A stretch of DNA of 64,000 nucleotides from Eledone cirrhosa (taxonomy: Eukaryota): the NCBI GenBank assembly GCA_964016885.1, contig OZ024748.1, positions 21,328,001 through 21,392,000 of the forward strand. The letters are read 5' to 3'. Below the pieces are notes generated by a model. The model did no database searches, was not told where the DNA came from, and saw nothing but the letters and a program-made list of their open reading frames with translations. How positions within the stretch are numbered: the first letter of the stretch is position 1; every line of letters starts with the position of its first letter. Of this stretch, positions 4,055-6,227 are shown in pieces. The translations under genes were made by a program, and so were the position numbers.

Positions 4055-5178
4055 TTAATGCATAAAAACGGTCTCCATACCATTTGAGGGTACTCTGCTT
4101 GTATTTTAGTGCACGCAAAGGAAAGTAACTGTGAGTAAGTCGTGGTTGTAGTGTTGGTGGCGGCGGTTCTGCTATTGATGTATCTCTGTTACCATGACTA
4201 TTTCCATGCCTCCTACTTAAATCATTTGACTAATTATTTAAATCTCTGTACCGACGTAATAGGTGATGTCAGTGAGGGTCCTTGGTCATTATCCAGCGTC
4301 TTAGCTTCGCTATCGTGCACAACATGGTTGCAAGTGTGCTGACTTGTTCCTAAACTAATTAGGGGAAAACTCCAGCTCTCCTTCTTGTGGCGTGGGATTT
4401 GGTGTGTTTTCACACTTTTTCTCATTTTTTTTTTATATAAATTGTGTTTGATTTGTAAGCATAATTATGTGAAATTAAGGTTATCTGTTATCCAGATTTT
4501 CTCTGGACACATAATATAAGAAACATGGGAAACAAATACGTCTAATGTTTCCAAATACATCCATCCCCACAAACCACTCTTTCTTTCTGTACCAATGTGG
4601 TTTGAGGTATTTTAATTATTTCCCTACCTTTATGCTGTTGCATAAACCAGCTTCTGGTTTGGTCTATTTTTAATTACATTACACTTTTTTTCATGTCACG
4701 GCATCGGAAAATTTCTTCAGAGACTCATTGTCCGCAATGGAGAAGGAGCGAAACTTTGAAACAATACGTCAGTAATAATTATCTCCATCACCAGAGACAA
4801 ACGGTGTAGCCAAAGAGAGTAATATATATATATATATATATATATATATATATATATATATATATATATATATATATATATATACAGAGAGAGAGAGAGA
4901 GAGAGAGAGAGAGAGAGAGAGAGAGAGAGAGAGAGAGAGAGAAACTATTATAGTAATTTACGTTGAGGTGACATCATTTCGAATTTCCAATATTCTCAAT
5001 GCTTCTTAAGGCAACTGGGCGTATGAGTGTACGTATATATATATATATAAGCAGAAGGGATATTTAATTTGTTGCAAATTCAACAAATATAAATGTTTAT
5101 TCAGAGCACTCGACAGATTTCTGGAGTAAATATTCAATGATATTAAATAAATGGAAACTATATTTATAAAACCATATT

Positions 5179-5240
5179 TATTCTATTATATATATTTCAA
5201 GGGTACCAAAAACTTTGATACGCTTTCATCAGATAAAATA
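5179..5240 (-). ncRNA. Type-I hammerhead ribozyme, family A (left arm of fold-back)
   Basis: Near-exact reverse complement of 5360-5421; core CTGATGA...GAAA intact. Confidence 0.78.
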
Positions 5241-5359
5241 CAAAGTGTGTTTGATAAATTTTGACATAGCCAAGGAACATACCTTATCAGTTGAATAAGG
5301 AAAATTCAACTGATAAGGTATGTTCCTTGGCTATGTCAAAATTTATAAAACACTCTTTG

Positions 5360-5421
5360 TATTTTATCTGATGAAAGCGTACCAAAGTTTTTGGTACTCT
5401 TGAAATATATATAATAGAATA
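5360..5421 (+). ncRNA. Type-I hammerhead ribozyme, family A (right arm of fold-back)
   Basis: TATTTTAT-CTGATGA-AAGCGTACCA..TGGTACTCTT-GAAA-TATATA-TA-ATAGAATA: 8-bp stem I, about 10-bp stem II, palindromic stem III. Confidence 0.8.
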
Positions 5422-6227
5422 AATATGGTTTTATAAATATAGTTTCCATTTATTTAATATCATTATATATATATATATATATATATATATATATATATAT
5501 ATATATATATATATATATATATGTGTGTGTGTGTGTGTGTGTGTGTGTGTGTGTGTGTGTGTGTGTGTGTGTGCATAGACATATGTAGATATTCATACAT
5601 GCATATATACGCAGTTACATATAACATATATGCGTTTGCGTGTGTGAATGTGTGAGCGTGTATGTTTAAATACATTCATACACATGTATGTATGATAATA
5701 TCTATTTATCTGTGCATGTGTGTGTGTATGTCTGTGCGCCCGCCTTTGTGTGTGTGTGTATGTGTGTATCAATGTGTGTGTGTGTCCTCCTTTGTATGTG
5801 TAAGTGTGTATAGATGTCTGTGTGCCCGCCTTTGTATGTGTGTATGTGTGTACCAATGTGTGTGTGTATGTCCTCCTTTGTATGTGTAAGCGTGTATAGA
5901 TGTCTGTGTGCCCGCCTTTGTATATATGTTTGTGTGTATCAATGTGTGTGTGCCCACCCTTGTGTGTATGCGTGTATCAATTTATGTGTTTCGCCCATAT
6001 ATGTATGTATGCGTATAACAATGTGTGTGTGTCCTCCCATGTATGTATGTATGCGTATAACAATGTGTGTGTGCCCGCCCATGTATGTATGTATGCGTAT
6101 AACAATGTGTGTGTGCCCGCCCATGTATGTATGTATGCGTATAACAATGTCTGTGAACGTGGTCGTGGATGTGTGTGTGTACATGTATGTGTTTGTGTAC
6201 ATGTATGTGTTTGTGTACATGTATGTG

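Follow-up and report, generated by a model that had tools for sequence, protein, structure and literature searches.

How did a 329-bp fold-back with a hammerhead ribozyme motif on each strand come to lie in the genome of Eledone cirrhosa, and could its RNA act as a ribozyme? We analysed the hairpin within a 64,000-nt stretch of contig OZ024748.1 (assembly GCA_964016885.1, positions 21,328,001–21,392,000 of the forward strand; hereafter the window, whose numbering is used throughout) in a genome of 3.0 Gb that is rich in microsatellites. A first-pass annotation had named the inverted pLTR copy of a Penelope insertion as the simplest origin, had noted a resemblance to viroid-like RNAs and had proposed that a transcript folds either as a rod or as the catalytic structure. 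We find it highly probable that the hairpin is an inverted-pLTR insertion of a Penelope-like element (PLE).

The fold-back is built as annotated, from two 161-bp arms (5136–5296 and 5304–5464) around a 7-nt loop (5297–5303), and the arms differ at four pairs (5202/5398, 5218/5382, 5246/5354 and 5253/5347). The annotated extent of 5136–5464 describes the inverted arms correctly but not the insertion, which spans 5050–5464 and includes an 86-bp tail on the left arm (5050–5135, minus strand). Both ends of the insertion, 5050 and 5464, abut the (TA)n target (left flank 5034–5049, right flank 5465–5522). The whole consists of two head-to-head pLTR copies of a Hydra-type PLE with a one-sided tail. 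The tail-bearing arm (5136–5296, minus strand) extends from about +14/+15 of the pLTR to a short start site; the tail, which lacks 7 bp present in other copies, lies between this and a second inferred reverse-transcription start site and, in intact context, continues into a 5′ UTR with an ATG ~54 nt further on. The tail-less arm (5304–5464, plus strand) ends at the short start site and is followed by (TA)n. The apex loop (5297–5303, plus strand) represents the extra 5′ sequence of the right arm, +8 to +14, and its junction is unique in the genome. Since the right arm starts at +8 and the left at ~+14, +1 is missing from both, and a transcript of this copy's own is unlikely. No sizeable host reading frame was found near the hairpin among stop-to-stop frames of at least 130 aa in window 1–30000, a threshold that small exons would escape.

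The hammerheads reported on each strand, pointing outward, are both present, and the description 'complete' applies only in the sense of a minimal, dimer-type hammerhead. On the plus strand the motif (5360–5421) has CUGAUGA at 5368–5374 and GAAA at 5402–5405, a span of 5368–5405, with a predicted cut after 5413; on the minus strand (5179–5240) CUGAUGA lies at 5232–5226 and GAAA at 5198–5195, a span of 5232–5195, with a predicted cut after 5187. Each arm provides a helix I of 8 bp, a helix II of 3 + 8 bp, a helix III of 2 bp closed by AUAU, and the cleavage triplet AUA. By boxes, triplet and helices this is a type I hammerhead of the PLE dimer type. In a genomic sample anchored on the ribozyme core, 155 of 175 arms parse as a hammerhead, 153 of them with the AUA triplet. 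Helix III and its loop are self-complementary in 141 of the 155 parsed arms, and the palindromic helix III is predicted to be more stable as a duplex (−3.2 kcal/mol) than as a hairpin (+4.7 kcal/mol). Pair 10.1–11.1 is A-U at this locus, without the G10.1–C11.1 pair, and among the 155 arms it is A-U in 110, G-U in 30 and G-C in 4.

Helix II covaries: 7 of 9 pairs have changed on both sides and 97.8% of cells pair among 10 diverged copies; 0 of 500 shuffles reach 7/9, a control that is inflated by the relatedness of these hand-picked sequences. The covariation indicates that the source elements conserve the structure of the motif. The hammerhead region of the right arm is more stable than 200 of 200 shuffles (z −3.5); that of the left arm (z −0.9) does not beat all of them. 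No match in the window reached the Rfam gathering score, and an E-value search of 4900–5700 returned generic miRNA-hairpin models as its strong matches and no hammerhead family.

We predicted the fold of both strands, allowing us to compare the rod with the ribozyme. For the full-length RNA of either strand the rod has a predicted energy of −232 kcal/mol, and forcing the downstream hammerhead raises this to −148 and −149 kcal/mol on the two strands. The alternative between rod and catalytic fold, as first proposed, is thus not a balance: the predicted rod is more stable by ~83 kcal/mol, which argues against a two-state switch. A single arm on its own adopts the hammerhead at 3.5–5 kcal/mol above its best fold. 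Transcription from either side makes the antisense arm first, and where the transcript arises by read-through this arm is predicted to lock the ribozyme into the rod. A role as an ADAR or Dicer substrate is possible only under such read-through; copies in transcribed regions, if any, would give near-perfect duplexes of 160 bp.

To which element do the arms belong? The first 30 tail-anchored loci contain many single arms, and several extend further 5′ through common sequence; walking upstream leads to an endonuclease-like frame with many genomic relatives. The arm lies directly downstream of an RT/GIY-YIG frame, in sense orientation, in 13 of 16 frame loci, four of which were chosen for a nearby tail match; the link is seen in 10 of the other 12. 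In one locus (L081), whose copy starts slightly before +1, by a few bases, the pLTR and the tail continue into the 5′ UTR and an ATG follows ~54 nt later, and in two others (L085, L089) a partial pLTR/tail continues into the ATG. The Penelope pLTR origin suggested at first is therefore supported by a tie between the arm and a Hydra-type RT-endonuclease frame. The protein shows DKT, an RW motif, YxDD, a CxCX5C linker, VY..YVG, and CxxC and CxH flanking E and N, without CCHH; YxDD and VY..YVG are found in natural frames. The RW motif is RWC in L080, RWR as read from DNA in L081, L085 and L089, and RWK in most homologs. Pfam gave no significant domain in the PLE frames. The motifs match the definition of the Hydra clade in the accessible text of PMC8557442 and support assignment to it, and the clade's insertion traits are present as well: (TA)n targets, a pLTR with hammerhead, an inverted copy and a tail at one end. 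A separate 349-aa frame (L053:2850–3896, minus strand) has a weak RVT_1 match and no BLASTP relation to the Hydra-type protein, and probably represents a different PLE clade.

The hairpin is one of a very large set. All 40 scored loci, among 2,291 candidates, match almost the entire hairpin; exact copies in the genome number 1,503 for a 27-mer from the tail and 2,129 for a 30-mer from the ribozyme core. Palindromes number at least 1,766, with 496, 1,026 and 244 at inner spacings of 74–104, 105–135 and 145–175 nt, respectively; these counts are lower bounds obtained with exact 16-mer anchors and leave out spacings of 136–144 nt. In the widest class, 39 of the first 50 have spacings up to 155 nt, about two full arms, so palindromes thin sharply beyond that length. 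We analysed 86 palindromes, comprising 40 loci chosen for their similarity and, from a spacing-limited pattern search, the first 50 matches on contig 1, with an overlap of 2 and two apparent segmental duplicates dropped.

The junctions of these palindromes follow three regularities. (i) Of the 86 palindromes, 76 have the tail on exactly one arm, 1 has it on both and 9 have none; as independent ends would give at most 50% one-tailed copies, the observed fraction exceeds independence. The same one-tail rule holds, where checked, for long insertions with an inverted 5′ partner (L050, L051, L083, L091, L092 and L126), and a second hairpin family has a one-sided tail in 48 of its first 50 copies. 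(ii) The longer arm begins at or after +1, the A of an initiator-like TCACT, in 55 of 56 palindromes, and between +1 and +3 in 34; the count covers the 56 of 86 with a well-matched reference, leaves out the other 30 and is biased by the spacing limits. TCACT has been described as an initiator in pLTRs (PMC3846280). (iii) Where +1 is kept, the preceding base is G in 13 of 27 arms (background 15.6%, p = 7.5e-5). In the internal copy the base before +1 is C in 45 of 49 overlapping rows, and G does not occur there. Judged by eye, the opposite arm could supply 8 of the 13 Gs and not the other 5, and 5 of 9 further junctions carry G. The excess is not reproduced in the second family, where the base before +1 is G in 8, T in 15, C in 8 and A in 1 of 32. 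At the apex itself, the two arms overlap by at least 2 nt in 19 of 36 junctions without inserted bases (12% by chance), and inserted bases occur in 20 of 56 junctions; the junction of the 5050–5464 copy has an overlap of 1 nt only. In the literature accessible to us we found no paper that gives such statistics on the +1, the extra G and the single tail; parts of them may be contained in Evgen'ev 1997, Pyatkov 2004, Arkhipova 2006, Schostak 2008 and Lunse 2017.

The arms thus derive from the pLTR of the element, which carries the hammerhead; each palindrome has an apex of its own, and the arms stop at a fixed +1 and typically share a single tail. We consider it probable that the locus consists of two head-to-head pLTR copies set into (TA)n, likely in one insertion event and likely as a dead end, by two cDNAs primed on opposite strands. 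The twin-priming detail is held with moderate confidence and would proceed as follows. An RT-endonuclease, probably a dimer, would nick both (TA)n strands, and each 3′-OH would prime a cDNA on a capped sense RNA; the short site would be the start of one cDNA and the end of the tail that of the other. Primed within the 5′ pLTR of the RNA, the cDNAs would run off at the cap after ~175 and ~260 nt, the cap sometimes being copied as an extra base. The cDNA ends would then be joined through 0–5 nt of microhomology and filled in. The hammerheads would be passengers in this process and the template an uncut RNA. Several of these steps have precedents: in a Poseidon element two RT start sites flank the tail, both strands are cut and extended, a dimer is predicted and ribozyme cleavage is not needed (PMC11167929), and in L1-driven insertions the cap is copied as an extra G (PMC3287187, PMC11702581).

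The strongest competitor, which we regard as unlikely, accepts the same PLE identity and proposes self-priming: one cDNA folds back, or an antisense transcript primes itself, and the tail is added at resolution. Self-priming with an antisense template has been proposed for rotifer Penelope elements (PMC3846280), and an 'EN-mediated resolution' of the tail is described in PMC8557442. Partner arms do share variants: in 30 young palindromes they have 78 minority letters in common, against 24.5 expected and a maximum of 36 in 300 re-pairings. This requires one source or one RNA and also suits fold-back of a single cDNA, and the apex microhomology would suit a snap-back no less. The covarying stem-loop at the 5′ end of the pLTR also speaks for self-priming. 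The division of labour between the arms, however, is at odds with it: the arm that reaches further 5′ is the tail-less one in 36 cases and the tailed one in 16 (p = 0.008), a split that one cDNA alone cannot give, since in these 36 of 52 a cDNA without a tail would have to template one. The wall at +1 with its extra G likewise suits a capped sense template and not an antisense one. A hybrid, in which one cDNA snaps back and then anneals to a second cDNA, is also conceivable.

The stem-loop itself is a 6-bp covarying stem (L002:1622–1675 and 17 other arms) around a block conserved at ~+19 to +30, which may serve as a downstream promoter element or bind a protein. Stalling of the RT at this structure is a less likely cause of the apex, since the wall coincides with the 5′ base of the stem and not with its 3′ base.

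A self-propagating non-autonomous unit, whether a DNA transposon of MITE type or a hairpin retroposon that is copied in full, is very improbable. The number of palindromes, above 1,700, their similar size and their TA-rich flanks would agree with such a unit, but the genomic copies do not share an interior. Counting copies with the same loop position, a check the first-pass annotation had suggested, shows that the apex of this locus occurs once in 3.0 Gb, and the central 24-mers are distinct in 85 of 86 palindromes; an apex found once among at least 1,766 palindromes argues that the hairpin is not copied as a unit. The ends are asymmetric, with a one-sided tail, and single arms and long 5′-truncated copies have the same ends. 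Many subfamilies share the palindromic form, with both arms from the respective subfamily. Partner arms diverge by a median of 2.9% across the 86, and 10 of 86 pairs are identical. The data fit formation at each insertion followed by decay, and they speak against an assembly artefact as well as against a MITE or a viroid-like replicon. Ongoing homogenisation of the arms was rejected, since in only 67 of 172 cases is an arm closer to its partner than to the nearest arm elsewhere. A/G differences account for 90 of 447 mismatches between arms and show no skew, which is a weak test of edited templates.

More improbable still is an origin as DNA copied from a circular RNA, viroid-like or a retrozyme, that has a ribozyme in each polarity. 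A hammerhead on both strands and a rod-like RNA fold invite this reading, and animal retrozymes have been described as PLE derivatives (bioRxiv 2026.07.22.740005). The two ribozymes are, however, mirror copies of one sequence and not two motifs; the ends lie ~50 and ~135 nt beyond the cut sites, the arms are inverted with no tandem monomer, and the predicted rod would block both ribozymes. In the tail-anchored sample the full ribozyme motif persists in 12 of 20 arms and is lost in 8. The viroid-like resemblance raised at first is not borne out, given a unique apex, differing apices elsewhere and arms that decay independently. An assembly fold-back artefact has a negligible probability: no DNA contig or 150-nt RAD read examined crosses the whole hairpin, but the four arm differences at this locus, already advanced against an artefact in the first-pass annotation, hold, as do the divergence between arms across the 86 copies, the one-sided tail and the differing apices with biological signatures.

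Other features of the window resemble the hairpin or its source. The second hairpin family also lies in (TA)n (25986–26180 and 25613–25725), with arms of ~60 bp, a one-sided tail of ~75 bp, 12,199 anchored copies in the genome and no CUGANGA box seen in the arms. At 29085–29400 an inverted copy is joined to a truncated copy with a tail-like extension, which resembles this second family; a CUGAGGA...GAAA match lies within it on the minus strand (29168–29116). Single arms that belong to the same PLE lineage but are older, and whose hammerheads covary, occur at 51590–51750, 53199–53380 and 61355–61500, and a related tail at ~61810–61890, past SINE-like sequence. Short hairpins at 22468–22593, 41098–41172, 52940–53100 and 53443–53528, several of which adjoin (TA)n, possibly belong to other PLE families. 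A decayed fragment at 27498–28051 is weakly similar to the Hydra-type RT (E = 6e-17, 33–37% identity). A 216-aa frame at 11783–12433 (minus strand) seems to resemble the C-terminal part of an R2/R4-type retroelement, with its zinc knuckle and restriction-like endonuclease. The window also contains an exact 259-bp direct repeat (239–497 and 792–1050, 553 bp apart) and a long tandem array with a period of ~44–46 bp (6150–8700).

The hairpin itself is ordinary retroelement debris and neither a viroid-like RNA nor a ribozyme switch. Its value lies in the large natural data set to which it belongs, in which the single tails, the stop of the arms at +1 and the extra G together yield a specific, testable model. 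In its general form this model states that thousands of minimal hairpins record how Penelope inserts, with a dimeric RT-endonuclease that starts one cDNA from either strand of the target, each at its own fixed site on a capped sense RNA, and joins the two head to head; we put this forward tentatively, as possible rather than probable. If true, one rule would explain the inverted pLTR and the one-sided tail in all endonuclease-bearing PLEs, and the question of a sense or antisense template would be settled. The origin of the head-to-head repeats and one-sided tails of PLEs is called open in the accessible text of PMC3846280 and PMC8557442. By-product hairpins, more than 12,000 in the second family, could in addition supply editing or small-RNA pathways of this genome with perfect dsRNA on a large scale.

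Among known systems, non-LTR retrozymes are likewise small non-coding units with type I hammerheads, and hammerhead viroids carry ribozymes on both strands of a rod. In contrast to both, the present hairpins have no tandem monomers, end away from the cleavage sites, contain mirror-image ribozymes and are not copied as a unit. The closest match is the Hydra clade of C-terminal-endonuclease PLEs (Craig et al. 2021, PMC8557442), which, as far as it is described there, shares DKT, the RW motif, the CxCX5C linker, the lack of CCHH and CxxC/CxH around E/N, as well as (TA)n targets, a hammerhead near the 3′ end, an inverted 5′-truncated copy and a tail at one end. The tail is 30–40 bp there and 86–93 bp here, and the present element has a 3′ UTR of ~1 kb and RWR or RWC instead of RWK. 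Its hammerhead also differs from that of Hydra-1_oBim in the supplement of PMC8557442, which indicates another family. With the PLE pLTR hammerheads of Cervera and de la Pena (2014, PMC4209133) the motif shares type I topology, a long helix II and a short palindromic helix III predicted to act as a dimer; pair 10.1–11.1 is A-U here (110/155 arms) where G-C is usual in that account, and helix I has 8 bp. The same study reports opposite-strand hammerhead pairs 100–700 bp apart in Schistosoma mansoni.

The Poseidon element PAc of Anolis (Frangieh et al. 2024, PMC11167929) agrees in its two internal RT start sites that bracket the tail, in the cutting of both strands of AT-rich DNA and in the uncut RNA template. 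In PAc tail and ribozyme overlap the ORF start, whereas here the ATG lies ~54 nt past the tail, and in the accessible text the two start sites are not paired with opposite ends of one insertion. The inverted-pLTR Penelope elements of Adineta vaga (Arkhipova et al. 2013, PMC3846280) share head-to-head pLTRs, an optional tail on one of them, the TCACT motif and a palindrome at the 5′ end. They are described there from few copies and with an antisense self-priming model, whereas here thousands of ORF-less minimal hairpins are available, and their junctions point to a template that is capped and sense. Inverted pLTRs and one-sided tails (PMC8557442, PMC3846280) and opposite-strand hammerhead pairs (PMC4209133) are thus already known from these sources; the present analysis adds statistics on the junctions: how often the tail is on one arm alone, where the arms stop and which base precedes +1.
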